Shown: positions 43,831 through 63,905, counted from the first letter of the stretch. The stretch is DNA of 64,000 bases from Gemmatimonadales bacterium (GCA_036558345.1 DATBFV010000041.1:2289-66288), one strand, 5' to 3'. Made by a program: numbers and translations. The notes: a model not told the origin generated them from the sequence alone.

Positions 43831-45020
43831 TATCGCAGCGGCGCCCCGGCGGCGATCCAGCGACCCAGCAGCGCCCGTTCGTCTTCTGTGATGCCGGTTT
43901 TGTTCGCGAGCGGCATGGTCTTGGTTTCGACCGCGCGGATGCGAATGCGCTCGGCGAGCCGCACGATGTTCTCGGGTGTATCGAACGTCACGCCGCCCGG
44001 CGCTGGCCCAAGCGAGTGGTCGCTTTGATACTGCGAGTGGCAAGGCTGACAGCGCTGCGCGATCACGACGCGCACGGCGGCGAAACTCGGCACCTCCGCG
44101 GCCTCCCCCGTCACGGCCGCCGCCCGCGGCGTCGCGAAAAACACCGCGACGGCGAATGCCAGTCCCGCGGGCACCAGCGCCCAACGCGCGACCCGCGCGC
44201 GACCGATCATCGCATGTCGCACCGCCGCTCCGGCGACAAAAAGCAGGAACAGCACCAACCAGTTCAACGGACTCGCGTACGTCGCCGGGAAATGATTCGA
44301 CACCATGATGAACAGCAGCGGGAACGTCATGTAGCTGTTGTGCACGGAGCGCTGCTTCGCCCGCTCGCCCAGGGTAAAATCCGCCGGCCGGCCGGCCCGC
44401 GTGGCGTCGAGCATCTCCTGCTGCGCGGGAAGAATGCGCTGCCACACGTTCGCCACCATGATCGTACCCAGCAGCGCGCCCACGTGCATGAACGCGGCTC
44501 TGCCTGAGAAGAGCCGGCATGCAAGCAGCGTGACCGCGGCGAGGAGCACGAGCGAAATCGCACTCGCGATCGCCGGCTTCTTGGCAAGTGGAGAGCGCCA
44601 CAGGCCGTCGTACACGGGCCAACCGAGGACCACCATGGCAAGCCCCGAGGCGATCGCGGTACCGCGAGAAATCCGTGAGACACTCGGGTCCAACAGGTAG
44701 GCGCTACTCAGATAGAAGAGGAGAATCAGCAGCGCGATGCCCGTGAGCCAGGTCAGCATCGCTTCCCATTTGAACCAGTGCAGCACCGGAGGGATCTCAC
44801 CCGGTCCGGGACGACGCTTTTCGACCTGGTAGAACCCGCCGCTATGCACCATCCACAGATCGCCCTCGACTCCCGGTCTCGGTGTCTCAGGCTTGGCGAG
44901 GGCCCGATCCAGCCAAATGAAGTAGAAGGAGCTGCCGATCCAGGCGATACCGGCAATGAAGTGCGCCCAGCGCAGGAGCAGGTTTGCCCAATCACCTAGC
45001 CATCCGGTCATGGCGCCCAT
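43830..45020 (-). CDS. puuD: PuuD-like membrane urate hydroxylase with C-terminal cytochrome c domain
   Basis: GDWANLLLRWAHFIAGIAWIGSSFYFIWLDRAL, as I recall the PuuD N-terminus. Multiple TM segments. C-terminal heme-c motif CQPCHS. Confidence 0.75.
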   Translation of the reverse strand: MGAMTGWLGDWANLLLRWAHFIAGIAWIGSSFYFIWLDRALAKPETPRPGVEGDLWMVHSGGFYQVEKRRPGPGEIPPVLHWFKWEAMLTWLTGIALLILLFYLSSAYLLDPSVSRISRGTAIASGLAMVVLGWPVYDGLWRSPLAKKPAIASAISLVLLAAVTLLACRLFSGRAAFMHVGALLGTIMVANVWQRILPAQQEMLDATRAGRPADFTLGERAKQRSVHNSYMTFPLLFIMVSNHFPATYASPLNWLVLFLLFVAGAAVRHAMIGRARVARWALVPAGLAFAVAVFFATPRAAAVTGEAAEVPSFAAVRVVIAQRCQPCHSQYQSDHSLGPAPGGVTFDTPENIVRLAERIRIRAVETKTMPLANKTGITEDERALLGRWIAAGAPLR

Positions 45021-49374: not shown

Positions 49375-51537
49375 ATGCTCACGCTTTTGCTCAGCGTTCT
49401 GATTCTGCCGGCCGACACGGTTACTGGCCGGATCGTCGACACCGCCGGCCACGCCGTTCCCCAGGCCATTGTCGAAGTTGCGGAGCTTGGCACCAGCGTC
49501 ACCACATCCGCGGACGGCACGTTTCGGTTGAATCTCGCGCCGGGCCGGTACACGCTCGCTGTCCGGCGCCACGGCTATGCGCCCGCCGTGCGCGAAGTCG
49601 TCCTTACGCCGGGAATGCCCGCCGAGCTCCAGATCATGCTTACGCCGAGCGCGTTCCAGCTCGAGCCCCTGACGGTCACGGCGACGCGACAACCACTTCC
49701 GTCGCAAAGCTCGCCACTGCCGTCTACCGCCCTCACCGGCGACGCGCTTCGCAACGCGCAGAGCGTCTCCCTGGCGCACGTCGTCGCGACGTTGCCCGGT
49801 GTGAATGCGATTACCACCGGTTCCCAGATAGGGAAGCCCGTGATCCGCGGATTTGCGGGCCCGCGCGTGCTCGTGCTCGAGAACGGCAGCCGGCTCGAGG
49901 ACTATTCGTGGAGCGATGAAGACGGACCGTCAGTCGAAACGGCGTTCGTCCGTCGCATCGAATTGATTCGCGGACCGGCGAGTGTGCTGTACGGCTCCGA
50001 CGCTGTGGGCGGCGTGATCAACGTGATTCCGGATCAGCTTCCAGATGCGGGCGGCGGTCGGGGATTCATGCGGACCGGCTTCATGGTGTCGGGCGCGACG
50101 AACAATGTCGAGGTCGCGGCCGCGGGACAGGCCGAGGGCGCAAAGGGCAATTTCGGCTGGCGCGTCAATGCGATCGGCCGCGGATCAGGCAACCTCCACA
50201 CCCCCGACGGCGAGCTCGACAACACCGGATTCGGCGCACTCAACGGCGATGCGACCGGCGGCTGGCGCTGGGCGTCGGGCAGCAACCTGGCGTTCCGGGT
50301 CGTGCATTACGGCGGCGAGTTCAAGTTGCTCGAGGCCAACGCGGCGCCGGGTGAGGAGGGCGGCCCGGAGCGCAAAGCCGGCGACAACCGGATTCAGATC
50401 ACAGGCCAGCGTCCGTTGCGCGGTGGCGCATGGCGGCTCGAGGGGAAGGGCCAACTTCAAGCCCATTCGTTGATCGAGGTGTCGGACGACTCCACCGGCA
50501 CGGAGTCCGAGGCGTTCAATCTACAGCTCAAAACCGCCTCACTCGATGTGCTCCTGCATCACGGGGGCACGACGCTCGGGATTACGGGAATCGGCCAGAC
50601 GAATGATGCGAGTGGGCGCGAGCCGATCGTTCCCGACGGGAGCACGATTTCAGGCGCCGCGTTTGCATTGCAACGCTGGAGTCTGGCCAACGGTCGCTGG
50701 GCGTTGCTCGCGGGGCTGCGCGGCGATGCGCAGCGGCTCAGCGCTGACCAGAATGATTCGCTGGGCGTCGTGGCGCAGGATCGCAATGCGCAGGCGTGGT
50801 CCGGGAACGTAGGCCTGGTCTTCATGCCCGCATCCCCCCTGTCGTTGACCGTGAATGTGGGACGCGCGTGGCGCGCACCGACGTTGTTCGAGCTCTTCGC
50901 CAACGGACCGCACATCGGCGAAGCACGGTACGAGCTCGGCGACTCCACGCTGAAGCCCGAGCTAGGCGGAGATGTCGATGTGGGGCTGCGGTGGAACGAC
51001 CACCGCGTTCGGTTCGAAGTCTCCGCGTATTACAACAAGCTGTCCGATTTCATCTACGTCACGCCGACGGCGGCCGTCATCGATTCGTTGCCCGTCTACC
51101 AGTACAGCCAGGCGGAAGCCGAGATGCTGGGCGGCGAAGCGTTTGTCGAGGCCGAAGTCGCGCGAGGGTTTGTGGCGCGCGGCCGGCTCGAGGCTGTGCG
51201 CGGCACCAACCTTGCGGCCCACGAGCCGCTACCGCTCATCCCACCGCGCCGCGCCGCGGCGTCGGTCGCTTGGCGCGACCGTGTAAGCGTCGAGGTCGAG
51301 AACTATGCGACGCCAACACGGCTCAATCCGCTCGACATCGCCACCGAAGGGTACACACTCCTGAACCTCGGCGGTGGCGCCGATCTCCGCCTGTTCGGGC
51401 GCGACATGCGGCTCGACATCCAGCTCCGGAACGCGCTCGACGAGCGTTATAGGAGTTTTCTGAGTCGCTATAAGACATTTGCGGACGATCCAGGCCGGAA
51501 CCTGATCGTCCGGCTGACCAGCGGCTTTATCGATTAG
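49375..51537 (+). CDS. TonB-dependent receptor with N-terminal carboxypeptidase-regulatory-like domain
   Basis: GRIVDTAGHAVPQAIVEV..GRYTLAVRRHGY (CarbopepD_reg-like). Plug blocks are GKPVIRGFAGPRVLVLENG and RIELIRGPASVLYGSDAVGGVINV. A long beta-barrel region follows. Confidence 0.85.
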   Translation: MLTLLLSVLILPADTVTGRIVDTAGHAVPQAIVEVAELGTSVTTSADGTFRLNLAPGRYTLAVRRHGYAPAVREVVLTPGMPAELQIMLTPSAFQLEPLTVTATRQPLPSQSSPLPSTALTGDALRNAQSVSLAHVVATLPGVNAITTGSQIGKPVIRGFAGPRVLVLENGSRLEDYSWSDEDGPSVETAFVRRIELIRGPASVLYGSDAVGGVINVIPDQLPDAGGGRGFMRTGFMVSGATNNVEVAAAGQAEGAKGNFGWRVNAIGRGSGNLHTPDGELDNTGFGALNGDATGGWRWASGSNLAFRVVHYGGEFKLLEANAAPGEEGGPERKAGDNRIQITGQRPLRGGAWRLEGKGQLQAHSLIEVSDDSTGTESEAFNLQLKTASLDVLLHHGGTTLGITGIGQTNDASGREPIVPDGSTISGAAFALQRWSLANGRWALLAGLRGDAQRLSADQNDSLGVVAQDRNAQAWSGNVGLVFMPASPLSLTVNVGRAWRAPTLFELFANGPHIGEARYELGDSTLKPELGGDVDVGLRWNDHRVRFEVSAYYNKLSDFIYVTPTAAVIDSLPVYQYSQAEAEMLGGEAFVEAEVARGFVARGRLEAVRGTNLAAHEPLPLIPPRRAAASVAWRDRVSVEVENYATPTRLNPLDIATEGYTLLNLGGGADLRLFGRDMRLDIQLRNALDERYRSFLSRYKTFADDPGRNLIVRLTSGFID

Positions 51538-52787
51538 CGCTTCGCGAGTGCCGCAGTCGTCGCGGCGTCGAGGATTTTCCAGATCTGGTCTGCCCACGCG
51601 CGGTGCTCCGGCTTCATGAGCACCGAGCGGAGGCAGACGATCGTATCGCGGTCGCGCTGCATCTCCTGCACATCGATCAAACCTACCGGCAGCGTTACGA
51701 GAGCCAGATGAAGCTGGCGCTGCGCGGCCTCCTCGAAAATTCGCTGCGACAGCGCTGAAGCTTCGGTGATGCGCGTGGCGCGCGGTGCCCAGACGAGGAT
51801 GTCGAGCTCTGGCGCCGCGCCGGTCACGAAGCGTCGGTCGGCGCGAATCCGCTGATAGAGGTCCAACGCCGCCGCTCGCCCCGCCGCAAGTCCTTTCGCG
51901 AATTCTCCACCGCGCACGAGCGGAAGTAGGCGCTGCGTCGCCCACAGGGCCACGGCCGCGGCGCCTGGGCGCGAGCATTCCAGTGAGATCTCGCCCAGAT
52001 GCATGTCGGTGGAGGTGTAGTAGGTGTAGGGCGAGTCATGACGGTACAGTCGCCCGACCGCTGGATCCTTGAAGATCACGCAGCCGCAGCCGTAGGGCTG
52101 CAGCCCGTGCTTGTGCGGATCGATGACCACCGACGCGGCCTCGCGCATGAGCTCGAGCGCGAGCCGCGTTTCGTCCCTAAGGTTGTCCGCCAGTAGAAAG
52201 TAGCCGCCGTACGCCGCGTCCGCGTGAATCCGGAAATCGAACCGGCGCCGCAGGTCGACGATCCCCGCGAGGGGATCGACGGCGCCGGTCGCCGTCGTTC
52301 CCATCGTCGCCACGACAGCGCCGACTCCGCCCGCCGCGAGCCGGCGCTCGAGCGCCTGGATGTCCATCCGGCCGGCGCGATCGCAGGGAATGGTCTCGAA
52401 GGGCAGGCCGAGGACGCCCGTAATGCGCTGGTGCGTGTAGTGCGCCTGTGTCGAGGCGAGAATGGTTTTGCCCGCGTGAAGCTGGCCGGCGATCCACAGC
52501 GCTTCGAGATTCGCCATCGTGCCGCCGCTGCACAGGTGACCGAGGTGGGTGTCCCAGCCGATCATGCGCGCGAGCGCGGCAACCGCTTCCTTTTCCATCG
52601 CCGAGCTGGCGCGGCCGCCGTCGAGTGCGTGGTTGTTCGGATTGATTTTGAGGGCCATCTCATACGCGCGACGGGCGATCTCGTGCGGCGGCTTCAGCAT
52701 CTGCCCTGCGTAGAGCGGATCGCCGTATGGGTAGTTGTCCTTGAGGCGTTCCGCGACTTCTCGCAGCACCGCTTCAAGATCCTTCAA
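51534..52787 (-). CDS. PLP-dependent decarboxylase (group II, MfnA/GadB-like fold)
   Basis: GGTMANLEALW and the PLP-lysine block VVIDPHKHGLQPYGCG. The TTG start at 52787 overlaps the Rieske gene end by 14 nt, so the start is uncertain. Confidence 0.8.
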   Translation of the reverse strand: MKDLEAVLREVAERLKDNYPYGDPLYAGQMLKPPHEIARRAYEMALKINPNNHALDGGRASSAMEKEAVAALARMIGWDTHLGHLCSGGTMANLEALWIAGQLHAGKTILASTQAHYTHQRITGVLGLPFETIPCDRAGRMDIQALERRLAAGGVGAVVATMGTTATGAVDPLAGIVDLRRRFDFRIHADAAYGGYFLLADNLRDETRLALELMREAASVVIDPHKHGLQPYGCGCVIFKDPAVGRLYRHDSPYTYYTSTDMHLGEISLECSRPGAAAVALWATQRLLPLVRGGEFAKGLAAGRAAALDLYQRIRADRRFVTGAAPELDILVWAPRATRITEASALSQRIFEEAAQRQLHLALVTLPVGLIDVQEMQRDRDTIVCLRSVLMKPEHRAWADQIWKILDAATTAALAKR

Positions 52788-53895
52788 GGGCCCTCAAGTA
52801 CGTCCTGTCCCAGGCGGCAGGAATGCTTTCACGCGGCGAGTACGGTCCCGGTGCGTACACGCGCGAGCTGACGCCGAGCTGGCTCTGCTCGCAGATGTGC
52901 CAGTCTTGCCGGTTGGTGCGGTCCCAGAACTCTTCCGCATCCTGGATGTTGTACCCCGCGGCGCGCGGCGCGTCGGGGTGCACCATCCATTCGCACACCA
53001 CGCGCGACTCGTTCGCTGACTTGGGCCAAACGGTATAGAACACCGCGTAGTCGGGATGCAGGCTCAGCATCATGCTGGGGAAGAGCGCGTAATAGAACGC
53101 GCGCCGTTGATCGTCCCCGTCGAGCCTGCCGAGCGGCAGCGCGCAAGCGCGGCCCGTCATCGTCGCGCTCTCGTTCGGCGCCTTGATCTCCATGTAGCCG
53201 CCGAGGAACGGTCCTTCGATCAAGTCGTTCGCGCCGCTCGTGTACGGCAGCTTGGTCGACAGCTCGGGATGAATCGTGGGGCAGTGCAAGCATTCATTGT
53301 AGTTCTGCAAGATCAGCTTCCAGTTGGCGCGCACGTCGTATTCGATGCGCCGCACCGTCGTCAGCCGCGGCAAGTTGTAGCGGGAGAATCGCCCGGTGAG
53401 CGGCGCGAACCACTGCGCCGCATCAGCCTGCGCATCCAGGTTCACAAACAGGAATCCCTCCCACTCGGCGAGCGGGACGCGATGCAGCGGGTAATTCTTC
53501 TTGTCGAAGCCCTCGACTTCATTCATGTGTGGGGCGCCGATCAGGCGGCCGTCCAACGCATACGTCCAGGCGTGGTACGGACACTGAATCGTCTCGGACA
53601 GGTGTCCGGATGACGCTTCGCAGAGCCGCGTTCCGCGATGACGGCACACGTTGTAGTACGCGTGCCGCTCGCCCGACTGGTCGCGCAGCACGATGATGCT
53701 CTCGCCTCCGACTTGGACGACGCTATAGTCGCCCGGCTTCTGCAGAGCCGAATCGCGGCCCACACAGATCCAGTGACGGGCGAAAATCCGCTCCTGGTCC
53801 TCGGCGAACACCTCGGGCGACGTGTAGTAGCGGCCGGGCAGCGTCTTCGCGCCCTGCTTGTAGCTGTCGGTGGTCTTGAGGAATGTGGCCATCAC
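52774..53895 (-). CDS. Rieske non-heme iron oxygenase, alpha-subunit type
   Basis: Rieske CRHRGTRLC...CPYHAW. Mononuclear iron motif NYNECLHCPTIHPE (E-x2-H-x4-H). The start is either the GTG at 53895 or the ATG at 53892; both overlap the upstream stop. Confidence 0.85.
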   Translation of the reverse strand: MMATFLKTTDSYKQGAKTLPGRYYTSPEVFAEDQERIFARHWICVGRDSALQKPGDYSVVQVGGESIIVLRDQSGERHAYYNVCRHRGTRLCEASSGHLSETIQCPYHAWTYALDGRLIGAPHMNEVEGFDKKNYPLHRVPLAEWEGFLFVNLDAQADAAQWFAPLTGRFSRYNLPRLTTVRRIEYDVRANWKLILQNYNECLHCPTIHPELSTKLPYTSGANDLIEGPFLGGYMEIKAPNESATMTGRACALPLGRLDGDDQRRAFYYALFPSMMLSLHPDYAVFYTVWPKSANESRVVCEWMVHPDAPRAAGYNIQDAEEFWDRTNRQDWHICEQSQLGVSSRVYAPGPYSPRESIPAAWDRTYLRALEGS

Positions 53896-55184
53896 GTCTC
53901 CTTCAATATCACCTTCGCCGCGTTCCGGCCCGCCGCCCCCGGAATCCCGCCCCCGGGGTGTGTGCCCGCCCCGCAGAGATAGAGCTCCGGTACCGGCGTG
54001 CGATACCGGCTCCAGCCGGGGACCGGTCGCATGAACAGAATCTGGTCGAGCGTCAGCTCACCGTGGTAGAGGTGTCCGTTCGGCGTCTGGAGTCTGACCT
54101 GGTACGCGGGGACGCCGAGCGCCGCCGCGACCCGCGATTCGAGTCCAGAGTCCACGGTCGCGGCGTACTGCACGTGGATCTCATTGCCAAAGGTCTCGAC
54201 GTAGGGGTTTGCCGAAGGCCTGCCGTACTTCGCATCGTCGTAAGCGCGCTCGAGGTAATCCAGCGACGGCGCAACGCACTGCGGTGCGCCAGGAGGAGTC
54301 CCCCCCAACGACCCGCGCACCACACAGTTTCGCGCCTTGATGTTGTGGACGGCCCTCATGAACTCGGGATCGAGTTGGGCCTGGTAAGGCTCGAAGGCGG
54401 TCTTCGGGTCGGCGCTCGACACAACGACCCGAGCGGGTGGCGGGTCGCCCTGAACAACCTCCACACCGGGGAGACCCTCCAGCACCTCTCTCACGTTCGA
54501 CCTCGGCGGCCGGAAGACTCCCACAGCACTTCCCACGTGGTGGTGCAGGAAGTTGAAGGCGGTCCCGCCTGAGCGCGGGCCCTGCTTCAGGTGCCACACG
54601 CCGAGCGCGCCCAGAACCCCCTTGAGCGCGTCGCTCTCGAACCAATCGTCCAGCAGCTCGGCGATGGACATCGGGAGGATGCGGAGCAGATCGATCACGG
54701 TCTGCTTGCCGAGGCGCCGGACCCGCATGCCGAGGCGGCCGAGACGAATCAGCTCGCCGACATCGCGGGACTCGACGTCGGGCGCTGGTTGGAGGTAAAG
54801 CGCCTCCAGGACACCCGCCAGACGGTGCATCCGCGCGCAGAACTCGGGCCATTTCGCCGCGTCCGCGGGGCTCACGCGTTTGATCGCCTCGGCGGACTTC
54901 GCGACGTCGCGCGACAGCGCGAGCCCGCCACCACCAGAGAGGGGCGCGGTGATCCAGGGATCTGGTGCCTCGATCCGCAGGCGGGGCGTCGCCAGGCCCA
55001 GCTCCCTGATGATCTGCGGCGGTACCCAGCCGGTTTCCCACTCCGACGCGATCTCGCGCCGTTCCTGGACGACCACGACTCGCCGCCCTGCGCGCGCGAG
55101 ATAATGCGCTGCGACCAGGCCATTCACGTCCCCGCCGATCACGACGACATCCACTCGCCGTCCTTCGCCGCTCTTCGCCGTCAT
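53892..55184 (-). CDS. CrtI/PYROXD2-like oxidoreductase paralogue, shortened, with a degenerate dinucleotide-binding motif
   Basis: VDVVVIGGDVNGLVAAHYLARAGRRVVVV replaces GGGHNG, and ERREIASEW replaces ERRPRVGGA. It shares the C-terminal blocks PSLDY.ERAYDDAKYG and G.GTHPGGGI.GA.GR.AA..ILK with the neighbouring 528-aa paralogue. ATGA overlap. Confidence 0.8.
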   Translation of the reverse strand: MTAKSGEGRRVDVVVIGGDVNGLVAAHYLARAGRRVVVVQERREIASEWETGWVPPQIIRELGLATPRLRIEAPDPWITAPLSGGGGLALSRDVAKSAEAIKRVSPADAAKWPEFCARMHRLAGVLEALYLQPAPDVESRDVGELIRLGRLGMRVRRLGKQTVIDLLRILPMSIAELLDDWFESDALKGVLGALGVWHLKQGPRSGGTAFNFLHHHVGSAVGVFRPPRSNVREVLEGLPGVEVVQGDPPPARVVVSSADPKTAFEPYQAQLDPEFMRAVHNIKARNCVVRGSLGGTPPGAPQCVAPSLDYLERAYDDAKYGRPSANPYVETFGNEIHVQYAATVDSGLESRVAAALGVPAYQVRLQTPNGHLYHGELTLDQILFMRPVPGWSRYRTPVPELYLCGAGTHPGGGIPGAAGRNAAKVILKET

Positions 55185-56767
55185 CGGCCGTTCTTCAGGA
55201 TCGTCATCGCGGCGAGGCGGCCCGACGCGCCCATGATCCCGCCACCCGGGTGCGTGCCGGAGCCGGCCTGATAGAAGCCCCGCACCGGTGTCGTGAACTT
55301 CGCCCAGCCTGGCGCGGGTCGCAGGAAGAAGAGCTGATGCAGCGCGAGCTCGCCGGCGAAGATGTTGCCCTCGGAGAGCCCCGTGATCTTTTCGATGTCG
55401 AGCGGCGTGATCACCTGGCGGTGCAGAATCAGCGATTTGAAGCCCGGCGCAAAGCTCTCGACGGTGTTCACCACTGCGTCGCCGAAGGCTTCGCGCTTCG
55501 CGTCGGTCCAGCCGCCGTTCTGGTTGTACGGCGCGTACTGCACGAAGATCGACATGACGTGTTTGCCCGGCGGCGCCATCCCCGGATCGATCATCGATGG
55601 AAACACGATGTCCATGTAGGGCCGCCGCGAGAACTCGCCGTACTTCGCGTCGTCGTACGCGCGCTCCACGTAGTCGAGGCTCGGACTGATCGAGACGGCG
55701 CCGCGATGCAGCCGACCGCCCGGTCCGCCGTCGGGCATACAGGCGAACTTCGGTAAACCTGACAGCGCGAGATTCACTTTCCCGGACGAGCCGCGGAACT
55801 TGAAGCGGCGAATGTCACCGATGAGGTCGTCGGGAAGGTCGCCCTTCTCGAGCAGTTGCAGGAACGTGCGGCGCGGATCGAGACTCGACACGATGGTGCT
55901 TGCGCGCAGCTCGTCGCCGTTCTCGAGCGCGACGCCGATCGCGCGGCCGCTCTTTACCATGACTTTGCTGACGCCGGCATCGCAGCGGATCTCCGCGCCA
56001 AAGCCGCGCGCGGCTGATGCGATCGCCTCGCTGACGGCGCCGGTCCCGCCCTTGGCAAAGCCCCAGGCGCGGAAGACGCCGTCCAGCTCGCCCATGTAAT
56101 GATGAAGGAGGACGTACGCCGTGCCCGGGGAGCGCGGCCCCAGGAACGTGCCGATGATCCCGCTGGCCGATTTCGTGGCCTTGAGCACGTCGGTCTCGAA
56201 CCACTCGTCCAGGAAATCGGCCGAGCTCATCGTCATCAGCTTGACGAGCGCGTGCAGCCGCTCGGCGCCCAGGCCGCGGAAATGCTTGCCGAGCTTGAGC
56301 AGTCCCGCGAGGTCGCCGGGAGCGAACGACGTGGGGTCTGGCGGTACCATGCTGAGGATCGGCTTCACCGCTCGGGCCATGAAGTGCATCAGGTGGCCGT
56401 ATTCGTCGTACGCTTCGGCATCGCGCGGCGAATGGCGGTATAGCTCGCGCCGGGTCTCGTCGTGGTCTGCCCAGGCGGCGAGATAATTGCCGTTCTCCAT
56501 CGGCGTGACGGTGCTCTCGAGCGGCAGGATGTGCAGCCCGTGCCGCGGCAGGTCGAGATCGCGAATGATCTCGGGCCGGAGCAGCGACACGACGTAGGAG
56601 AACATCGAAAACTTGAAGCCAGGGAAGATCTCTTCGGTAACGGCGGCCCCCCCCACGCGCGGCCGCCGCTCGAGCACGAGCACCGACTTGCCGGCCCGCG
56701 CGAGATACGCCGCTGTAACCAGGCCGTTGTGGCCGCCGCCGATGATGATCGCGTCGTACTGTTTCAC
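55181..56767 (-). CDS. NAD(P)/FAD-dependent oxidoreductase, phytoene-desaturase (CrtI)/PYROXD2-like family
   Basis: Trimmed to the GTG start VKQYDAIIIGGGHNGLVTAAYLARAGKSVLVLERRPRVGGA (GxGxxG plus E...GG), which forms a GTGA overlap with the upstream stop. C-terminal GSGTHPGGGIMGASGR. The 111-aa track extension lies inside the GcvT-like gene. Confidence 0.85.
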   Translation of the reverse strand: MKQYDAIIIGGGHNGLVTAAYLARAGKSVLVLERRPRVGGAAVTEEIFPGFKFSMFSYVVSLLRPEIIRDLDLPRHGLHILPLESTVTPMENGNYLAAWADHDETRRELYRHSPRDAEAYDEYGHLMHFMARAVKPILSMVPPDPTSFAPGDLAGLLKLGKHFRGLGAERLHALVKLMTMSSADFLDEWFETDVLKATKSASGIIGTFLGPRSPGTAYVLLHHYMGELDGVFRAWGFAKGGTGAVSEAIASAARGFGAEIRCDAGVSKVMVKSGRAIGVALENGDELRASTIVSSLDPRRTFLQLLEKGDLPDDLIGDIRRFKFRGSSGKVNLALSGLPKFACMPDGGPGGRLHRGAVSISPSLDYVERAYDDAKYGEFSRRPYMDIVFPSMIDPGMAPPGKHVMSIFVQYAPYNQNGGWTDAKREAFGDAVVNTVESFAPGFKSLILHRQVITPLDIEKITGLSEGNIFAGELALHQLFFLRPAPGWAKFTTPVRGFYQAGSGTHPGGGIMGASGRLAAMTILKNGR

Positions 56768-58017
56768 GCGCCCCCCCGCTTCCGTTCCGGATTGAAAAAG
56801 GGCAGGGGCGTCACGCGCGCGTGGGCCGCTTTCCGTCGATGTTCGACCGTGATCTCCATGAGCAGCTCGGTGCCGGGCTTTGCGAACTGCGACTCGAGGT
56901 GTACCAGCGCCAAGTACTGCTTGAGCAGAGGCGACCATCCGCCGCTCGTCGCGTAACCGACCTGACGGCCGCCGCGGCCGTCGGCGTAGACGGGGACGCT
57001 CGTGCGCCACGCTTGCGTCGGGAGTCGCGGGGGGAGTCCGACCGTCGCATACAGCAGTTCGAGCGAGTCCCAATCGACCGTGAGACCCGTGAATCGCCAC
57101 GCCGGTCCCCGCGCGCGCTCGGCCTCAAGCGCCGCCTGGCCGTTGTAGCGCTCCTTGTCCGTGGCAACCGTCCAGGCGAGTCCCAGCTCCAGCGGCGACG
57201 ATTTCTGCGCCTCGATCAGCGCGTGGCGGGAGGAGAAATAGTCCACCTCGATGAGCAACAAGCCCGCTTCGATGCGCGCGACGTCGAGCGCGAGCATCCC
57301 GGCCGGCGTGATGCCGTAGGGAGTTCCGGTTTCGATCAGCGCATCCCACAGCTCGACCGCCCGGCTCGCGTCCACCCAGACTTCATAGCCCAGATCCCCC
57401 GTATAGCCGGTGCGAGAAATGGTGACAGGAATGCCGCGAATCTTCGCGCTCGTCAGCCGGAAATACTTGAGCGCGCTGAGATCGCGCTCGGCGGCGAGCT
57501 GGAGAATCTCCCGCGAGCTTGGTCCTTGCAGCGACAACGCGGCTGTCGTGTCGGATACGTCCTGGATTTGGACATCGAGCCCTGATGAATTCAGATGGAG
57601 CCACCGCAGCGTCGGGTCGGCCGAGGTCATCCGGAAGGTTTGTTCGTCGAGGACCGAGATCGTGCCGTCGTCAATTTGCTTTCCTTCATTGTCGCACCAC
57701 GGCGTGTAGAGCACCTGGCCGACCTTCGCCTTGGCCACGTTGCGGGTGACCACGTGATCCAGCAGGCGGCGCGCATCGCGCCCCGTGACGAGATACTTGT
57801 ACAGCGGCGACACGTCGAACAGCGCCGCCGAGTTGCGGATGGCGTGGTACTCGCGATCGTGCGACAGCTCGTACGAGCTGGCGACGACGTAGCCGGCCCA
57901 GCGCCGCCAGGCCTGACCTTCCGAGAGCGGACCCGTGCGGGGATGAAACGGCGTGGTGCGGAGACTCACGTGGCTTCGAAGTTGTCCATGATCGGGCGCG
58001 AAATCTAACTTTGGCAT
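56764..58017 (-). CDS. aminomethyltransferase-family (GcvT-like, folate-binding) protein
   Basis: HAIRNSAALFDVSPLYKYLVTGRDA, ALSLQGPSSREIL, ISRTGYTGDLGYEVW and GMLALDVARIEAGL are typical GCV_T blocks. An alternative GTG start at 57969 is possible. Confidence 0.85.
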   Translation of the reverse strand: MPKLDFAPDHGQLRSHVSLRTTPFHPRTGPLSEGQAWRRWAGYVVASSYELSHDREYHAIRNSAALFDVSPLYKYLVTGRDARRLLDHVVTRNVAKAKVGQVLYTPWCDNEGKQIDDGTISVLDEQTFRMTSADPTLRWLHLNSSGLDVQIQDVSDTTAALSLQGPSSREILQLAAERDLSALKYFRLTSAKIRGIPVTISRTGYTGDLGYEVWVDASRAVELWDALIETGTPYGITPAGMLALDVARIEAGLLLIEVDYFSSRHALIEAQKSSPLELGLAWTVATDKERYNGQAALEAERARGPAWRFTGLTVDWDSLELLYATVGLPPRLPTQAWRTSVPVYADGRGGRQVGYATSGGWSPLLKQYLALVHLESQFAKPGTELLMEITVEHRRKAAHARVTPLPFFNPERKRGGA

Positions 58018-58756
58018 GATGCGACTGCACCTCGTGGAAATTCACGATCTGCGCGGCTGCCCGCCGACGCTGCGCGACGCCTTGACCGACTTTCTGGCTT
58101 TCAGCGTGAACCTCGCGGGCGCATACGACCCCGCGGGACCGCTCTTGCGGCGCGCCGTCGCGCGATCCGGGGCGCGGCGGATCGTCGATCTCTGTTCCGG
58201 TGCGGGCGGCCCATGGCACCGGTTGGCGGCCGAGGTCGGCGTGCCGGTGCTGCTGACGGACCTGTACCCACACGGCGGCGGCGCCGGTGCGCTGCCGTTG
58301 CATGACGAGCCGGTCGACGCGCGTGCCGTGCCGCGAGAGCTCGATGGCTTCCGGACGATCTTCACGGCGTTTCATCATTTTCCACCCGAGCAGGCCCGGG
58401 AGATCCTTGCTGATGCGGTGAGCCGTGGACAGGGAATCGGCATTTTCGAGATCGCGCGGCGCGCGCCACGCGAGCTCGCGATCATCGCCTTCACGTGGCT
58501 CGGCACACTGGTTGCCGCACCCTTCGTGCGGCCCTGGAGCTGGTCGCGCGTGCTCTGGACCTATCTTCCGCCTGTGTTGCCGCTCGTCGGCACGTTCGAT
58601 GGCGTCGTCTCGTGCCTGCGGACTTACACGAAGGGCGAGTTGGCGGAGCTGGTTCGCGGCTTGGATACGTACGACTGGGACATTGGGGATTTTCGGGGAG
58701 GCTGGTCGCCGCTCAGGGGCACCTATCTGATCGGGATTCCGAAAAGCCGGGCCTAG
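58016..58756 (+). CDS. putative class I SAM-dependent methyltransferase-like protein
   Basis: RIVDLCSGAGGP resembles SAM motif I. The frame is GC3-rich and the C-terminal half is hydrophobic. The family assignment is weak. Confidence 0.65.
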   Translation: MMRLHLVEIHDLRGCPPTLRDALTDFLAFSVNLAGAYDPAGPLLRRAVARSGARRIVDLCSGAGGPWHRLAAEVGVPVLLTDLYPHGGGAGALPLHDEPVDARAVPRELDGFRTIFTAFHHFPPEQAREILADAVSRGQGIGIFEIARRAPRELAIIAFTWLGTLVAAPFVRPWSWSRVLWTYLPPVLPLVGTFDGVVSCLRTYTKGELAELVRGLDTYDWDIGDFRGGWSPLRGTYLIGIPKSRA

Positions 58757-58818: not shown

Positions 58819-60906
58819 ATGCGTACTTTCGCCGTTGCCGCTGTGTTTGTTGTCTGTCTGAGCCCCGCCGTTGCTGCAAGTCAAGAAACCGCATCCGACA
58901 CGCTCCTCACCGTCAACCACTATCTCGACTGGGAGCAGGTCGCCGACCCGCAGATTTCGCCCGATGGCGCGCAGATCATCTACACGCGCCGCTGGGTGAA
59001 CAAGATCGAAGATCGCTGGGACGCGGGACTCTGGATCATGAATGCCGACGGCTCGCGCAACCGATTCCTGGTCAAGGGGTCGAACGCCCGCTGGGCTCCC
59101 GACGGTTCACGCATCGCCTACTTCGCGGACGGCGACCCGAAGGGCACGCAAGTCTTTGTGCGCTGGATGGACGCCGAAGGCGCGACGTCGCAGGTGACGC
59201 ACCTCAGCGAGAACCCGAGCAATCTGAGCTGGTCGCCTGACGGCAAGTCGCTCGCGTTCACGATGCTGGTGAAGAGCGAGACGCCGTGGAAGATCAGCAT
59301 GCCGGCGGCCCCCGACGGAGCCAAGTGGACACCCGCACCGCGCGTCGTCGACCGGATGCATTACCGCCGCGATCGGCAGGGCTACGTGGAGCAGGGGACG
59401 ACACACATCTTCCTCGTCCTCGCCGACGGCGGCACGCCGCGCCAACTCACGACCGGCGACTTCGCTCCGACCGAGTTCGGCGGCTTCGGCCCTCCGAGCT
59501 ACGACTGGACACCCGACGGTCGAACCATCGTGTTTGACGGCCTGCGCGAACCGGATGGTGATTACCGGTATCGCGAGTCGTATCTGTACGCCGTCGATGT
59601 CACGAGTGGCAAGGTTCGTCAGCTCGTGAGCAAGAAGGGGAGCTGGACGGGACCGGTCGTGTCTCCGGATGGGCGGACGGTCGCGTTTACCGGCGCCGAC
59701 TACGGGACGTATTCGTATCATGCCGACGAAGTCTGGACGGTGGGTATCGACGGCACCGGGATGCGCGCCCTCACGACCTACGATCGCGATCCGGGTAGCG
59801 TGCGTTGGAGCCCGGATGGCAGCGGCGTCTTCTTCCCGCTGGCGGAACAGGGCACGAGCAACGTGTACTTCGCCGCACTGCGCGGCGGCAATCGCAAGGT
59901 CACCGACGGCGACCAGATGCTGTCCCTCGCGTCGATCGCGCGGCGTGGCAAGGAATTCAGCGGCGTGGGTATCCGAACCGACGCGACCAACCCCCCGGAC
60001 GTGGTCCGGTTCGGCCTCGGCGCCGGACGCGTGCAGCCGGTCACGCGCCTGACGAGTGTCAATGCCGACGTGCTGCAGGGCATCAGGCTCGGCGCCGAGG
60101 AGACCATCTGGTACTCCTCGGGCGGCGGCACGAAGGTGCAGGGTTGGATCATCAAGCCGCCGGGCTTCGACAAGAGCAAGAAATACCCGCTCATCATGGA
60201 GATTCACGGCGGACCGCACGGCATGTACAACGGCGCGTTCAGCTATCAGCTGCAGAATTTCGCCGCCAACGGCTACGTCGTGCTCATCACGAATCCGCGT
60301 GGCAGCACCGGCTACGGCAGCACGTTCGGCAATGCGATTGAGCGCGCTTATCCCAGCGTGGACTATGACGACTTGATGGCGGGCGTGGATACCGTCGTCG
60401 GCCGCGGTTACATCGACACGCAGCGCATGTACGTCGGCGGCTGCTCCGGTGGCGGCGTGCTGTCGAGCTGGGTGATCGGTCACACGACGCGGTTTGCGGC
60501 CGCCGCTGTGCGATGCCCGGTGATCGACTGGCTGAGCTTTGCGGGTGAGACCGACGTGCCCCTGTTCACGTACGGCTTCTTCGACGCGCCGTTCTGGGAG
60601 AAGCCGGACCAGTGGATCAAGCAGTCGTCACTCGCGTACGTCGGGAACGTGAAGACCCCGACGCTGCTGATGACGGGGGAACTCGACCTGCGCACGCCGA
60701 TCCCGCAGACCGAGGAGTACTACTCGGCGCTGAAGATGCGGAAAGTGCCGGTTGTGATGCTGCGGTTCAACGGAGAGTATCACGGCACCAGCTCCAAGCC
60801 ATCGAACTACCTGCGGACGCAGCTCTACATGCTGAGCTGGTATCAGCAACACAAGCTCGGCGGCGAGGGCGCCGCAGCTACGACGAGCGAGGCGCGGCAG
60901 CCCTAG
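58819..60906 (+). CDS. S9-family serine peptidase (prolyl oligopeptidase/acylaminoacyl peptidase-like) with N-terminal beta-propeller
   Basis: Trimmed to MRTFAVAAVFVVCLSPAVAA (signal peptide, GGAGG upstream). PD40-like blocks are ISPDGAQIIYT, WAPDGSRIAY, WSPDGKSLAF and VSPDGRTVAF. Nucleophile elbow GGCSGGG. HG-type block MEIHGGPHG. Confidence 0.9.
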   Translation: MRTFAVAAVFVVCLSPAVAASQETASDTLLTVNHYLDWEQVADPQISPDGAQIIYTRRWVNKIEDRWDAGLWIMNADGSRNRFLVKGSNARWAPDGSRIAYFADGDPKGTQVFVRWMDAEGATSQVTHLSENPSNLSWSPDGKSLAFTMLVKSETPWKISMPAAPDGAKWTPAPRVVDRMHYRRDRQGYVEQGTTHIFLVLADGGTPRQLTTGDFAPTEFGGFGPPSYDWTPDGRTIVFDGLREPDGDYRYRESYLYAVDVTSGKVRQLVSKKGSWTGPVVSPDGRTVAFTGADYGTYSYHADEVWTVGIDGTGMRALTTYDRDPGSVRWSPDGSGVFFPLAEQGTSNVYFAALRGGNRKVTDGDQMLSLASIARRGKEFSGVGIRTDATNPPDVVRFGLGAGRVQPVTRLTSVNADVLQGIRLGAEETIWYSSGGGTKVQGWIIKPPGFDKSKKYPLIMEIHGGPHGMYNGAFSYQLQNFAANGYVVLITNPRGSTGYGSTFGNAIERAYPSVDYDDLMAGVDTVVGRGYIDTQRMYVGGCSGGGVLSSWVIGHTTRFAAAAVRCPVIDWLSFAGETDVPLFTYGFFDAPFWEKPDQWIKQSSLAYVGNVKTPTLLMTGELDLRTPIPQTEEYYSALKMRKVPVVMLRFNGEYHGTSSKPSNYLRTQLYMLSWYQQHKLGGEGAAATTSEARQP

Positions 60907-63905
60907 GGCCGCCGCAGCGTCCCCTCGAACACCTGTTGAGCCCGCGGGTCGTCGCTCTCCGCCAACCGGCGGAGGGCGTCGGCCCGGACCTCGCGATTCG
61001 GATGCGACCGCGCGATCTCGATCAGGACCGGGATCCCGGCGCCGTTGTCCATGCCTTCGAGCATCTCGAGCGCGTTGCTGCGGACGTCCTCCGACTGATC
61101 GTTCACCAGCGACTTGAGGAGCGCTACGCCTGAGTCGCTCGGCGCCTGGTCTACGTAGGTTTCCATCGCCTTGTGGCGGAGATCCGGATCGCCGGGAGCG
61201 CGGGCGATGCGGGCGACAATCGCCAGGGCGCGGGCGTCTTTCATGTCGCCGAGTGCCTCGATGGCCTCGCTCGCGCCGTCGGGGTCATTGGTGCGGCGCG
61301 CGAGGTCGCCGAGTACGGCACGGACGCTGTCTTTATGGCCGCTCTCGCCCAGCGTTTCGATCGCCTGCCGGCGCACATCACTCGAGGGATGGGTGCGCGC
61401 GATGTCGACGAGCAGGTCATACGCGCGCTCGTCCCGGAGATCGCCCAGCGTTTCCACGGCCTGGCGCTGGACATCTGAGTCCTTATCGCGGCGGGCGATC
61501 TGCGCGAGAATGTCGAACGCCTGCGCCGGCTGCGCCTTCTCGCCGATCGTTTCCACCGCGGCGCGACGGATGTCGGCGTCGACATGCGTGCGTGCGATGT
61601 CGATGACCGCCGGCAGCCCCGCCTCGCCAATCTCGCCAAGCGTCTCGAGTGATTGACGCTGCACGTCCTCACTGCGACTGCTCGAGGCTAGCCCCGAGAG
61701 GAACTGCACGGTCTCGGCCGTGGGCGCGAGCTCGCCGAGCTTTTCGATGGCGTCGCGCTGGACGTCGGGCTCCGGATCATTCGTCGCGACCGATTTCATC
61801 AGCGTGATTGCCTCGGCGCGCGGAAGATTGTCGCCCAGCGTCTCGATCGCCTCCCGGCGCACATCCGGACGTGGATGGCTGCGAGCGACGTCCTGAACCG
61901 CGGGCAGACCGCGCCCGTTCGGCAGTTCGCCAAGCGTCTCGACTGCTTCGCGCGCGACATCATCGTCCGCGTCGGTCCTGGCAATGGAGACCAGTGTCGC
62001 AAAGGCGCGGTCGCTCGTCTTCTGACCCAGTCCCTCAACGGCCTCCCGTCTCACGTCGGCATCCGTCGCCGTCTTCGCGACGGCGATCAGCGAGTCGGTT
62101 GCCGCTGGCAGCGTGTTATCGCCCAGCGCTTCGGCGGCCTCGCGACGGACGTCGCCCGAGACATCGCTGCGCGCGGCGGCACTCAGCGCGACGACGGCGG
62201 CCGCGGTCGGATGGAACCCCAACCACTCCGCGGCTTGCTGGCGCACCCCTTCCGGTTCGCGGCTCGTGAGCAGTCGTACCAGGACAGGCACGACCACATC
62301 ACTTGATCCGTGAATACCAACCGCCGCGACGACGTCCTCGCGCAGGTCTGGATTGCTGGTTGCGGCAAGCAACTCTTGTACGATCGGCAGGCTCTGTGCG
62401 TCGGTCGCGCCACCCAGCCACAGCAGTGTGCGACCGCGGAAATCGACCGGCAAATACGCACTCGCGACGTGCACATTCGTCAGCACCGGCTTCCCGCCCT
62501 GATCGGACCGGAAGCCGAACAGCATCGCGATATCGTCAGAGTCGCCGCTTCCGGTGAGCGAAGGCAGACGCACGCCGCGGAACATGAGCCCCTGGAAGTT
62601 TCCGTACATCCGGCCACTGATCGTGATGTTCTCGCCCTTCACCTCCGTACCACGATCGACATAGACGGAGTGGTCGAGCCACGCGGGGCGCGGGATCGTG
62701 TACCCGATCCAGAACGCTCGTTTGGAAAGCTGCCGGGCCTCGGTGCGGGCCCACTCCCATCGCTGGGCCAGCGATTGCGACGGATCCGGCGCGCGCACGA
62801 CGGTGTCCGGCGCCGTCCGCGTGGTGTCGGCGCTGAGCGTTGGCGTGGCGCTGGCCTCCGCGATGCGATCGCTTCCGGTCGCGAGCAAGACGACGGTCAC
62901 GGCCAGGATGCCGGCAATGCCGGCGGACCAGCGCGGGAAGTATTCCGGGCGAATGGACGACGGGACGAGCAGGCGCTGCACGCGATGGAGCAGCGATCCA
63001 CCGGTGGCCGCGAGCGCGAGCCGCGGCGTGGCCGGGCGGAGGCGCTCCATGCCGACCAACGCTGATGCATAGAGCTGCGGGTCTCCACAGGTGGCGACAA
63101 CGAGATCGTCGCAACAGTGCTCGCGCTCCTCGCGCACCCGGCGCGACACCCACCACACGGCAGGATGATAGAAGAGCAACGTCTCGATCATGCACTGCAT
63201 GATGTTCACGACGTAGTCGTATCGGCGCACGTGGGCCAATTCGTGCGCGAGCAGGACTTCGAGCTGCTGCGGCGTAAGCCCGCTGAGCGCGCTCGTCGGT
63301 ACGAGAATCACCGGGCGCAGCCAGCCGACGACGGCCGGGACTTCGATGACGAGGGACTCCACGAGGCGAACCGGACGTGTGACGCGAAGCCGCCGGGCAA
63401 GACGGGACAGGATCTGCTGCAAGGCCGCGGAGATTTCACGTGTGCCCTGGGTGCGCAGGCGGCGCGCCATCATCCAGCCGTGCGCCAGCCGCGCCGACAG
63501 GGCGATGACGCCAAGCAACCAAAGGACGACGAGCCACGGCAGGGCGGGTTCGAGCAGTGCCTGAAGTCGGAGCGGGGCCACGACGCTCGGGTGTTGTGCG
63601 TGGCTCTCAACCGCCATCGCGCGAGCGGGGGCGGGGAACGCGGCGGCGTTGTTCGTCGCCGGCTCCATGGCGGTTGGAGGCGCGTCGGCAGGAACGTGAG
63701 CGTTTGCGCGATTGAATAGCCGCACGCCGGTGCCGATCGGAAGCGCCAGCATTAGCGTCAGCGTGAAGAGTGCGAAGGTGTAGCGTGTGCGGGCCGCGGT
63801 CGCCGGTAGCACGGTGAGCGTCACGGCGAGCAGTAGCGCAAGTGTCGCGCCCTGCCACGCGAAGTGGACCAGCGCCCATCCCAGGGCAGAGATCGCGTTC
63901 ATCAC
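60903..63905 (-). CDS. M56-family (BlaR1/MecR1-like) membrane metalloprotease-sensor fused to a C-terminal HEAT-repeat array of about 15 units
   Basis: N-terminal TM segments. HELAHVRRYD (HExxH at residues 221-225), then ETLLFYHPAVWW. A further TM segment at about residues 326-344, a region of about 160 aa, then 15 repeats of the D[VI][RQ]R.A.E.LG type. The start is the GTG at 63905 or the ATG at 63902; both overlap the blaI-like stop. Confidence 0.9.
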   Translation of the reverse strand: MMNAISALGWALVHFAWQGATLALLLAVTLTVLPATAARTRYTFALFTLTLMLALPIGTGVRLFNRANAHVPADAPPTAMEPATNNAAAFPAPARAMAVESHAQHPSVVAPLRLQALLEPALPWLVVLWLLGVIALSARLAHGWMMARRLRTQGTREISAALQQILSRLARRLRVTRPVRLVESLVIEVPAVVGWLRPVILVPTSALSGLTPQQLEVLLAHELAHVRRYDYVVNIMQCMIETLLFYHPAVWWVSRRVREEREHCCDDLVVATCGDPQLYASALVGMERLRPATPRLALAATGGSLLHRVQRLLVPSSIRPEYFPRWSAGIAGILAVTVVLLATGSDRIAEASATPTLSADTTRTAPDTVVRAPDPSQSLAQRWEWARTEARQLSKRAFWIGYTIPRPAWLDHSVYVDRGTEVKGENITISGRMYGNFQGLMFRGVRLPSLTGSGDSDDIAMLFGFRSDQGGKPVLTNVHVASAYLPVDFRGRTLLWLGGATDAQSLPIVQELLAATSNPDLREDVVAAVGIHGSSDVVVPVLVRLLTSREPEGVRQQAAEWLGFHPTAAAVVALSAAARSDVSGDVRREAAEALGDNTLPAATDSLIAVAKTATDADVRREAVEGLGQKTSDRAFATLVSIARTDADDDVAREAVETLGELPNGRGLPAVQDVARSHPRPDVRREAIETLGDNLPRAEAITLMKSVATNDPEPDVQRDAIEKLGELAPTAETVQFLSGLASSSRSEDVQRQSLETLGEIGEAGLPAVIDIARTHVDADIRRAAVETIGEKAQPAQAFDILAQIARRDKDSDVQRQAVETLGDLRDERAYDLLVDIARTHPSSDVRRQAIETLGESGHKDSVRAVLGDLARRTNDPDGASEAIEALGDMKDARALAIVARIARAPGDPDLRHKAMETYVDQAPSDSGVALLKSLVNDQSEDVRSNALEMLEGMDNGAGIPVLIEIARSHPNREVRADALRRLAESDDPRAQQVFEGTLRRP
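60936..62393 (-). repeat. coding tandem repeat region (HEAT-like units, period about 30-33 codons)
   Basis: Repeat cores sit at residues 521, 553, 585, 617, 649, 681, 714, 747, 777, 811, 843, 875, 908, 940 and 972 of the 1000-aa protein. At the nucleotide level, 61345-61379 and 61831-61865 are identical at 33 of 35 positions. Confidence 0.8.

Follow-up and report, generated by a model that had tools for sequence, protein, structure and literature searches.

To our knowledge, flavoprotein demethylases coupled to folate are known only as enzymes of the DAO fold that are fused or bound to a GcvT domain, namely DMGDH, SARDH, DMGO and sarcosine oxidase. LSD1/KDM1, which are flavoenzymes of the amine-oxidase fold, demethylate mono- and dimethyl-lysine via an iminium with release of formaldehyde, and cannot act on trimethyl-lysine. 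The current work concerns a minus-strand operon of five genes located on a 64,000-nucleotide stretch of DNA (G+C content of approximately 65%) from a Gemmatimonadales bacterium (GCA_036558345.1, DATBFV010000041.1:2289-66288), this whole stretch being referred to as the window and positions being counted from its first nucleotide. The closest homologs of the window point to an uncultured member of this order living in soil. The operon encodes a GcvT-like protein related to the trimethylamine N-oxide (TMAO) demethylase Tdm, two flavoproteins named FlavL and FlavS, a Rieske oxygenase and a pyridoxal phosphate (PLP)-dependent decarboxylase. As judged from the families involved and from the way in which their genes travel together, it probably specifies a tetrahydrofolate (THF)-coupled oxidative N-demethylation pathway for a methylated amine or amino acid.

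In the proposed pathway, FlavL would act on a secondary or tertiary amine, turning an N-methyl C-N bond into an iminium, and the stand-alone GcvT/Tdm-like protein would bind THF and take up the one-carbon unit as 5,10-methylene-THF instead of free formaldehyde. FlavS would assist FlavL without being catalytic itself, a role comparable to that of the nucleotide-binding half of sarcosine oxidase subunit alpha, which is likewise non-catalytic. The Rieske monooxygenase would take a methyl group off a quaternary nitrogen, where a flavoprotein cannot act, using electrons from a reductase encoded elsewhere; the inability of LSD1/KDM1 to act on trimethyl-lysine is the logic that would explain such a Rieske partner. 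The decarboxylase, added downstream in this Gemmatimonadales clade, would process the demethylated amino-acid product. Complex formation, the individual reactions and the nature of the substrate are inferred here; for the last, methylated lysines or other protein-derived N-methyl amino acids represent the leading guess.

The linkage on which this proposal is based was followed through a locus scan restricted to one genome per species, which retrieved 80 loci and, with the addition of metagenomic and plasmid loci, allowed 96 to be compared; gene starts in these related loci were set by a third-codon-position GC rule, and the loci (here numbered with the prefix L) of the window's own clade are all metagenome-assembled. 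The original prediction had described a coupled five-gene set. Coupling at the junctions was found to be kept, but what is conserved as a unit is the GcvT-FlavL pair, to which a second flavoprotein and a Rieske protein may or may not be added. At least seven phyla contain this pair, in most cases together with a paralogous second flavoprotein. Such linkage, for the most part through overlapping start and stop codons, was seen in Gemmatimonadota, Anaerolineae, Labilithrix, Vicinamibacteria, Nocardioides, Crocinitomicaceae and Alphaproteobacteria. The triad of GcvT-like protein, FlavL and second flavoprotein is kept where the flanking genes change (other Gemmatimonadota, Anaerolineae, Labilithrix, Vicinamibacteria and Crocinitomicaceae), and is found on plasmids of Rhizobium, Shinella, Ensifer, Fuscovulum and Parasedimentitalea. 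In the neighbourhood comparison, FlavL of the window is 72-78% identical to its orthologs in the other phyla sampled for this purpose, and approximately 50% identical to those of Alphaproteobacteria and Bacteroidota. The sequences compared directly show the order and coupling of the genes, the families of their products, the linkage across phyla and the type of selection.

Two contigs assigned to 'Enterobacteriaceae' (L065) and 'Steroidobacteraceae' (L016) carry a Gemmatimonadota-like module whose FlavL is 71% and 89% identical, respectively, to that of the window; these placements are probably binning errors and not real taxonomic spread.

All five open reading frames (ORFs) and their junctions were found at the coordinates previously claimed, apart from one gene end that is discussed below. 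The GTGA junction between the GcvT-like gene and flavL (56764-56767) is seen directly in the sequence, and the ORF coordinates give the remaining overlaps, being ATGA at 55181-55184, GTGATG at 53890-53895 and 14 nt at 52774-52787. Considering that 16 of the 33 same-strand junctions in the window overlap anyway, such overlaps are by themselves weak evidence of coupling. Their conservation across related loci is stronger evidence: the GcvT/FlavL genes overlap in 51 of 63 related loci, FlavL and the second flavoprotein in 55 of 63, the second flavoprotein and the Rieske gene in 32 of 43, and the Rieske and decarboxylase genes in 15 of 21 adjacent pairs. The view that these genes form a single coupled unit is therefore borne out by junction overlaps that are kept in dozens of related loci. 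A terminator scan revealed no terminator-like site on the minus strand within the operon; as a whole, these scans of the window were uninformative, no promoter being returned and terminator-like sites being found on the plus strand only, at a count that did not exceed the shuffle expectation.

A Pfam run agreed with every domain that had been named for the five proteins (GCV_T, Amino_oxidase/NAD_binding_8, Rieske/Ring_hydroxyl_A and Pyridoxal_deC). The GcvT-like protein matches GCV_T (PF01571) with 211.9 bits over profile positions 8-254 of 255, and GCV_T_C (PF08669) with 43.2 bits. In NCBIfam it best matches the TMAO demethylase model, of which it covers the C-terminal half (positions 386-760 of 763) with 276 bits, the cut-off being 1100, and it falls under the cut-offs of the GcvT models NF001567 (223 versus 300), TIGR00528 (163 versus 235.85) and NF010093 (139 versus 459). 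The solved structure nearest to it is Tdm (9q5a; 178 bits), with T-proteins, DMGO, DMGDH and SoxA coming next. Its closeness to folate domains that capture formaldehyde, those of Tdm, DMGO, DMGDH and SoxA, is a point in favour of the proposed pathway. A role as a methyl transferase of the DmdA/LigM type was rejected, since it gives far lower scores with those models than with the ones for Tdm, T-protein and SoxA. No H- or P-protein domain representing a gcvH or gcvP partner was detected in the window ORFs scanned with Pfam, and the partner of the GcvT-like gene in 63 loci is a flavoprotein gene.

N-terminal alignment with 15 relatives, which have a length of 395-399 aa, places the start of the GcvT-like protein at GTG 57969 (VSLRTTPFHPR). 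This is most likely the actual gene start, and it corrects the end at 58017 given in the original prediction by 48 nt, the new start lying inside that coordinate.

Two variations on the GcvT-like gene were observed elsewhere. In the metagenomic locus L089 (5433-7004) it is fused to an N-terminal IclR-type helix-turn-helix, yielding a 523-aa protein that suggests a folate- or substrate-sensing regulator-enzyme. In the Anaerolineae loci L062, L064 and L075, the triad is followed by a deacylase of the AstE/AspA family (approximately 373 aa) and a second, divergent GcvT-like gene whose product is 26-32% identical to the first.

FlavL matches Pfam Amino_oxidase over residues 15-524 and also NAD_binding_8, with DAO being matched over residues 5-41 only. 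The best curated model is that of the beta-carotene ketolase CrtO (311.5 bits against a cut-off of 1000), crtI_fam (TIGR02734) gives 110.9 against 238.1, and of the solved structures CrtI alone (4dgk; 69 bits) is a relative worth mentioning. The description of the operon as containing two CrtI/PYROXD2-like flavoproteins holds for FlavL, but the second protein, FlavS, is a truncated and degenerate paralog, being 31% identical to FlavL with 106 gap positions and yielding weaker Pfam matches to DAO and NAD_binding_8. In other lineages the second flavoprotein has a length of 514-542 aa and retains the GxGxxG motif, the RxGG segment and the FAD-domain meander. FlavS lacks the RxGG segment and part of this meander, which are deleted in the window's clade, and no copy shorter than that of the window was seen. 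In FlavS the GxGxxG motif has become GGDVNG, with the central Gly replaced by Asp (D19, codon 55128-55130), a change shared by the nearest relatives, which have GADVNG. On these sequence features FlavS probably no longer binds FAD.

The erosion of FlavS is accompanied by rapid change. Between the window and its nearest relative, L034, amino-acid identity amounts to 97% for FlavL, 93% for the Rieske protein, 90% for the decarboxylase and 89% for the GcvT-like protein, and to 60-65% for FlavS; the nonsynonymous substitution rate (dN) of FlavS is 4-15 times that of FlavL. FlavS was nevertheless rejected as a pseudogene, considering that it retains a single reading frame, that its indels are multiples of three and that its ratio of nonsynonymous to synonymous substitution rates (dN/dS) is 0.14-0.22, with that of FlavL being 0.04-0.10. 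It is therefore a functional, fast-evolving protein and, having lost FAD-binding segments yet remaining under purifying selection, is probably a non-catalytic partner that has given up catalysis. A second flavoprotein of 481 aa that was eroded independently is present in L089, and Nocardioides caldifontis carries GcvT-FlavL in the absence of any second flavoprotein, because of which FlavL is taken to be the essential enzyme. The AlphaFold2 model of FlavS is poor (mean predicted local distance difference test score of 63.2).

The window FlavS has its GxDxxG in common with the lineage represented by L001 and L004 (68-72% identical), while the other operon genes are closest to L034. This incongruence could be due to allelic replacement by recombination or to very rapid divergence.

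The label 'PYROXD2-like' was found to be well chosen. An exhaustive HMMER search with FlavL against 1.84 billion representative proteins yielded 2,945 clusters at E <= 1e-30, and among the top matches were PYROXD2 proteins of animals and choanoflagellates; mayfly and flatworm proteins also match. Oyster PYROXD2 (P0143, XP_011443058), the 23rd-listed match, is 44% identical (455 bits; query residues 3-525 versus 42-579), and FlavL and animal PYROXD2 generally share 42-44% identity over their full length. In all five comparisons PYROXD2 has a higher identity with FlavL (40-44%) than with the second flavoprotein (24-37%). A crude neighbour-joining (NJ) tree, constructed without support values, groups PYROXD2 with stand-alone bacterial proteins in a position neighbouring the GcvT-linked FlavL clade; a nesting of PYROXD2 inside that clade is unsupported by this tree and by the contexts of the nearest bacterial relatives.

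The link between human PYROXD2 and methylated amines in metabolite quantitative trait locus (QTL) studies, brought up in the original prediction, is real (PMC9286311, PMC8109053). The HPS1/PYROXD2 locus associates with trimethylamine and dimethylamine, the authors favouring HPS1 as the causal gene (PMC9286311). For plasma N6-methyllysine and N6,N6-dimethyllysine, a missense single-nucleotide polymorphism in PYROXD2, rs2147896, accounts for approximately 50% and 48% of the variance, respectively, and the locus also associates with N-methylpipecolate and trimethyllysine (PMC8109053). PYROXD2 is reported to be a human mitochondrial protein whose function is not precisely known, and its biallelic variants to lead to a severe infantile metabolic disorder (PMC8777681). 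The GcvT-linked bacterial neighbourhood of FlavL therefore provides independent support for an N-demethylase role of PYROXD2, and bacterial FlavL proteins, being soluble and having cultured carriers such as Fuscovulum ytuae, Rhizobium sp. SL42, Parasedimentitalea marina and Nocardioides caldifontis, represent a setting where this idea is directly testable.

The Rieske protein matches Pfam Rieske with 76.7 bits and Ring_hydroxyl_A with 158.6 bits. Its best NCBIfam match is the glycine betaine monooxygenase GbcA (232 bits against a cut-off of 670), and among solved structures it comes closest to the stachydrine demethylase Stc2 (3vca; 194 bits), a Ruegeria homolog (3n0q; 184 bits) and the carnitine monooxygenase CntA (6y8j; 155 bits), these matches to Stc2, CntA and GbcA confirming the type that had been suggested for it. 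The protein carries CXH-X17-CXXH together with an E-x2-H-x4-H mononuclear-iron motif and bridging glutamate. Its CRH...CPYH and NYNECLHCPTIHP align with NNRECYHCSSNHP of Stc2 and NYMECYHCGPAHP of CntA, the iron motif N-x2-E-C-x-H-C-x3-H-P doing so residue for residue. It belongs, by sequence, to the Stc2/GbcA/CntA group while being an equivalog of none of them, and activity on a quaternary ammonium compound is predicted. Of the 54 loci with room to see one, 43 have a Rieske gene immediately after the flavoprotein pair and 11 have none in this position.

No ferredoxin or reductase domain was detected by Pfam in the operon, its flanks or the larger ORFs of the window, several ORFs, mostly small, lying outside the scan, and over this range the earlier remark that the Rieske protein has no encoded redox partner is upheld. 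Two ORFs suggested by a motif scan as a Rieske reductase elsewhere in the window were rejected, one being glycogen phosphorylase-like by Pfam and the other the 246-aa protein without a family listed in Table 1.

The decarboxylase matches Pyridoxal_deC (PF00282) with 85.6 bits (cut-off 27), and its translation contains the PLP-lysine motif IDPHK. It was not assigned to one substrate class, all curated models scoring under their cut-offs (bits/cut-off: MfnA 126/299, PanP 116/606, TyrDC 113/905, RhbB 93/900, HDC 82/305, GAD 32/380). Its solved relatives are mixed, comprising tyrosine, 2,4-diaminobutyrate (DABA), cysteine-sulfinate, tyrosine/aspartate and siderophore-pathway decarboxylases. The gene accompanies the module in one syntenic Gemmatimonadales clade only, of which it is a clade-specific addition, and the 14-nt overlap with the Rieske gene is present in the window and in 10 further loci. 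An opposite-strand CHRD gene lies between the Rieske and decarboxylase genes in L001 and L002, and a gene for an 846-aa protein in L045; Streptomyces homologs of approximately 50% identity occur in unrelated contexts of an aromatic-catabolic or tryptophan-related nature.

Table 1. Genes of the operon and of its immediate flank, with positions counted from the first nucleotide of the window
Gene product	Position	Strand	Remarks
GcvT/Tdm-like tetrahydrofolate-binding protein	56764..57969	minus	401 aa from GTG at 57969; longest ORF, to ATG 58017, is 417 aa
FlavL, PYROXD2/CrtI-family FAD oxidoreductase	55181..56767	minus	528 aa; presumed catalytic amine-oxidising subunit
FlavS, eroded FlavL paralog	53892..55184	minus	430 aa; presumed non-catalytic partner subunit
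Rieske non-haem iron oxygenase alpha subunit, Stc2/GbcA/CntA (quaternary-amine) group	52774..53895	minus	373 aa
Group II PLP-dependent decarboxylase	51534..52787	minus	417 aa, TTG start
246-aa conserved divergent neighbour	58016..58756	plus	Context only, not shown as part of the system
S9 (prolyl-oligopeptidase family) peptidase	58843..60906	plus	Peptidase_S9 154 bits; context only

The genes that surround the module in different lineages are typical of a catabolism that puts one-carbon units on folate from an imported or peptide-derived nitrogen compound. PurU, a formyl-THF deformylase, is encoded directly upstream of the module in Crocinitomicaceae, and L055 carries formate dehydrogenase-like molybdopterin and Nuo51 subunits downstream of it. 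Regulators of the IclR (in one case fused to GcvT), TetR and AraC types stand beside the module in independent lineages, and its neighbours in Alphaproteobacteria include PotF-type and polar amino-acid ABC importers, omega-aminotransferases and an old yellow enzyme (OYE)/Fe-S flavoenzyme. Peptidases or deacylases (S9, S58, Tricorn/S41, M24 and AstE/AspA) are found in independent lineages, this association being a soft enrichment over approximately ten independent contexts with no statistical test behind it. The S9 peptidase is syntenic in the close clade, and an S9 peptidase is also encoded directly upstream of GcvT-FlavL in Nocardioides caldifontis. The folate and one-carbon neighbours, together with the protein families, support the original prediction of a catabolic or modifying route for an N-methylated amino acid or amine, of which the biochemistry would follow the scheme set out above.

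A family-level Gemmatimonadales clade is fully syntenic, its genes standing in the order of S9 peptidase, 246-aa protein, a small cupin, GcvT, FlavL, FlavS, the Rieske protein, the decarboxylase and a TonB receptor. The cupin gene (Cupin_2, 103-108 aa) lies directly upstream of GcvT in many Gemmatimonadota and Anaerolineae relatives, mostly abutting or overlapping it (for example at 4893-5219 in L003 and 4926-5237 in L001), and its weak best matches are cupins of the ureidoglycine aminohydrolase type. A tblastn search found no cupin near the window operon, where 46 bp (57970-58015) separate the GcvT start from the divergent 246-aa gene, and the cupin has therefore been deleted in the window. 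The 246-aa protein, which has no Pfam or NCBIfam family, is encoded at the same position in 39 related loci; it has a hydrophobic C-terminal half and contains a DLCSGAGG motif, and its IVDLCSGAGGPW motif is reminiscent of motif I of S-adenosylmethionine-dependent methyltransferases.

A more specific version of the proposal, which we advance tentatively and consider rather unlikely as a whole, is that the module takes free protein-derived methyl-lysines back to lysine, and that human PYROXD2 is the free N-methyl-lysine/N-methyl-amine oxidase that the metabolite-QTL studies suggest. The Rieske protein would then act on trimethyl-lysine and FlavL/FlavS/GcvT on di- and monomethyl-lysine to yield methylene-THF, with the resulting lysine being decarboxylated here and transaminated in other lineages. 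Hints in this direction come from the recurring peptidase and deacylase neighbours, the polar amino-acid importers, the PYROXD2 genetics, and the presence of lysine- and DABA-type decarboxylases among the relatives of the PLP enzyme. It is also a possibility that the two electrons from flavoprotein demethylation are passed to the reductase-less Rieske protein, which would make the pathway redox self-sufficient.

Several observations weigh against the N-demethylation pathway as proposed. All members of the module are known from sequence alone, and an amine substrate for FlavL is deduced from its context and not from active-site residues, because the nearest structure, CrtI, gives 69 bits. By Pfam, the operon encodes neither a Rieske reductase nor a transporter. 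The bacterial proteins that are closest to PYROXD2 are stand-alone with no GcvT nearby, and some members of the family occur with amidases or alone; linkage to GcvT is therefore confined to one subfamily. The Rieske partners are only 30-33% identical across phyla and not orthologous, in contrast to FlavL, and may therefore differ in substrate. Adjacency of the decarboxylase gene is inseparable from general synteny, and genes intervene in some relatives, one of them on the opposite strand.

This last point leads to an explanation that is compatible with the core of the proposal, and that we regard as possible though doubtful, according to which the functional unit comprises GcvT, FlavL, FlavS and the Rieske protein, and the decarboxylase is an unrelated housekeeping enzyme (e.g. 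for beta-alanine, a diamine or a polyamine) that is merely co-transcribed. The decarboxylase gene adjoins the module in a single clade, whose members have the flanking S9 peptidase, 246-aa and TonB receptor genes in common as well, it is split from the Rieske gene in L001/L002 and in L045, and its Streptomyces homologs have other surroundings; this is countered by the 14-nt overlap kept in the window and ten further loci, by the 15 overlaps among 21 adjacent pairs, and by the presence in or beside the module elsewhere of a different PLP enzyme, an omega-aminotransferase, which suggests that processing of a product, be it a primary amine or an amino acid, is needed repeatedly. Unlikely, in our assessment, is a variant of glycine betaine catabolism in which a GbcA-like Rieske protein generates dimethylglycine and the flavoprotein/GcvT pair replaces DgcAB and SoxBDAG in the conversion of dimethylglycine and sarcosine to glycine. 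GbcA is the best NCBIfam match of the Rieske protein (232 bits), the logic of a flavoprotein with a folate protein is that of DMGDH, DMGO and sarcosine oxidase, and PurU, which accompanies sox operons, is found with the module in one lineage. However, the GbcA score is a third of the cut-off of 670 with Stc2 and CntA about as close, no GbcB is encoded in the operon or in the scanned window ORFs, which also contain no betaine-type transporter and no serine or glycine enzyme nearby, and a group II decarboxylase, omega-aminotransferases and PotF-type importers make no sense for glycine.

The flavoproteins might alternatively deliver electrons to the Rieske protein, with GcvT trapping the formaldehyde that the latter releases. 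Neither here nor in the alphaproteobacterial operons does a ferredoxin or reductase gene accompany the Rieske gene, which is translationally coupled to the flavoprotein pair, but no Rieske gene adjoins the GcvT-flavoprotein unit in 11 of the 54 loci with room to see one, nor in Nocardioides and Crocinitomicaceae, Pfam reveals no iron-sulfur or NAD(P)H-ferredoxin-reductase-type domain in FlavL or FlavS, and FlavL is orthologous across phyla where the Rieske partners are not; such a role is thus considered very unlikely. Least probable by far is that FlavL and FlavS are carotenoid/isoprenoid desaturases or CrtO-like ketolases in a cluster that modifies a lipid: CrtO is indeed the best curated model at 311 bits and CrtI the closest structure, but the scores remain far below the respective cut-offs (311 versus 1000 for CrtO, 111 versus 238 for crtI_fam), no crt genes are present among the scanned window ORFs, the flavoproteins have a folate-binding protein as their obligate partner, and regulators, importers, PurU and peptidases in their surroundings.

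Folate-coupled N-demethylation, the reading preferred here, would imply that demethylase logic has apparently been rebuilt from a CrtI/PYROXD2-type fold, a separate folate protein and a decaying paralogous subunit, often with the addition of a Rieske oxygenase, and it may represent an unrecognised route for the microbial turnover of methylated nitrogen compounds in soil. The arrangement, although present in at least seven bacterial phyla, carries no curated name: none of the five operon proteins reaches the cut-off of a curated NCBIfam equivalog, and no NCBIfam model naming FlavL or the GcvT-FlavL-second flavoprotein triad was matched. A literature search on the gene combination, on bacterial PYROXD2 homologs and on trimethyllysine with Rieske proteins found no description, only the human QTL papers being relevant. 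Scores far under the curated cut-offs and the lack of a publication in that search agree with the earlier judgement that the locus is not a characterised one.

Elsewhere in the window, a 1000-aa BlaR1-type M56 peptidase/sensor with a long HEAT-repeat array is encoded at 60903-63905 (minus strand), and is conserved near several related loci. A methionine-salvage trio (HAD hydrolase, ARD dioxygenase and class II aldolase; 17466-19338, minus strand) is directly followed by a glycogen cluster (19335-28046, minus strand) comprising three GH57 genes, a starch-synthase-type glycosyltransferase and a phosphorylase-like gene, the genes of both groups sharing one strand and having overlapping junctions. 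At 42137-45020, an amidase and a urate-oxidase-N-domain membrane protein are encoded beside MacB/HlyD efflux genes; many related loci also have this amidase and urate-oxidase-N pair on the downstream side of the operon, as part of the general synteny of the clade.

When the operon is compared with known systems, the closest parallel is the pairing of an N-methyl-oxidising flavoenzyme with a GcvT-type folate module, as in DMGDH, SARDH, DMGO and SoxBDAG, and the N-terminal half of SoxA, a non-catalytic nucleotide-binding partner, may have its counterpart in FlavS. Unlike in DMGDH, SARDH and DMGO, the folate module of the operon is a separate polypeptide, and FlavL is predicted to have the CrtI/amine-oxidase (PYROXD2) fold and not that of DAO. 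With respect to SoxBDAG, the soxA model yields 160.6 bits versus 1164 and the soxG model 17.9 versus 144, and the operon contains no SoxB, SoxD or SoxG gene. The C-terminal folate-binding domain of Tdm is the closest relative of the GcvT-like protein by both NCBIfam and structure, but the latter lacks the N-terminal catalytic domain of Tdm and attains a quarter of the cut-off score. The Rieske protein resembles Stc2, GbcA and CntA in that its iron motifs align (with Stc2 and CntA) and that no beta-subunit gene is present, yet it is roughly equidistant from the three (194, 232 and 155 bits) and under every equivalog cut-off; in contrast to GbcA and CntA, no GbcB or CntB is encoded, and the Rieske gene is joined by overlap to the flavoprotein/folate module. 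PYROXD2 is like FlavL in its full-length sequence, and its genetics (N-methyl-lysines, N-methylpipecolate, trimethylamine and dimethylamine) match a demethylase role, although the crude NJ tree sets it in a neighbouring clade and not among the GcvT-linked FlavL proteins. LSD1/KDM1 differ from the FlavL system by their histone-tail substrate, their SWIRM and Tower domains and the absence of a dedicated GcvT partner, and no specific sequence relationship of FlavL to LSD1/KDM1 turned up, this comparison not having itself been searched for. By sequence, then, the system is one that would work like the dimethylglycine and sarcosine dehydrogenases and sarcosine oxidase, but that falls outside all of them by flavoprotein fold, gene composition and score.

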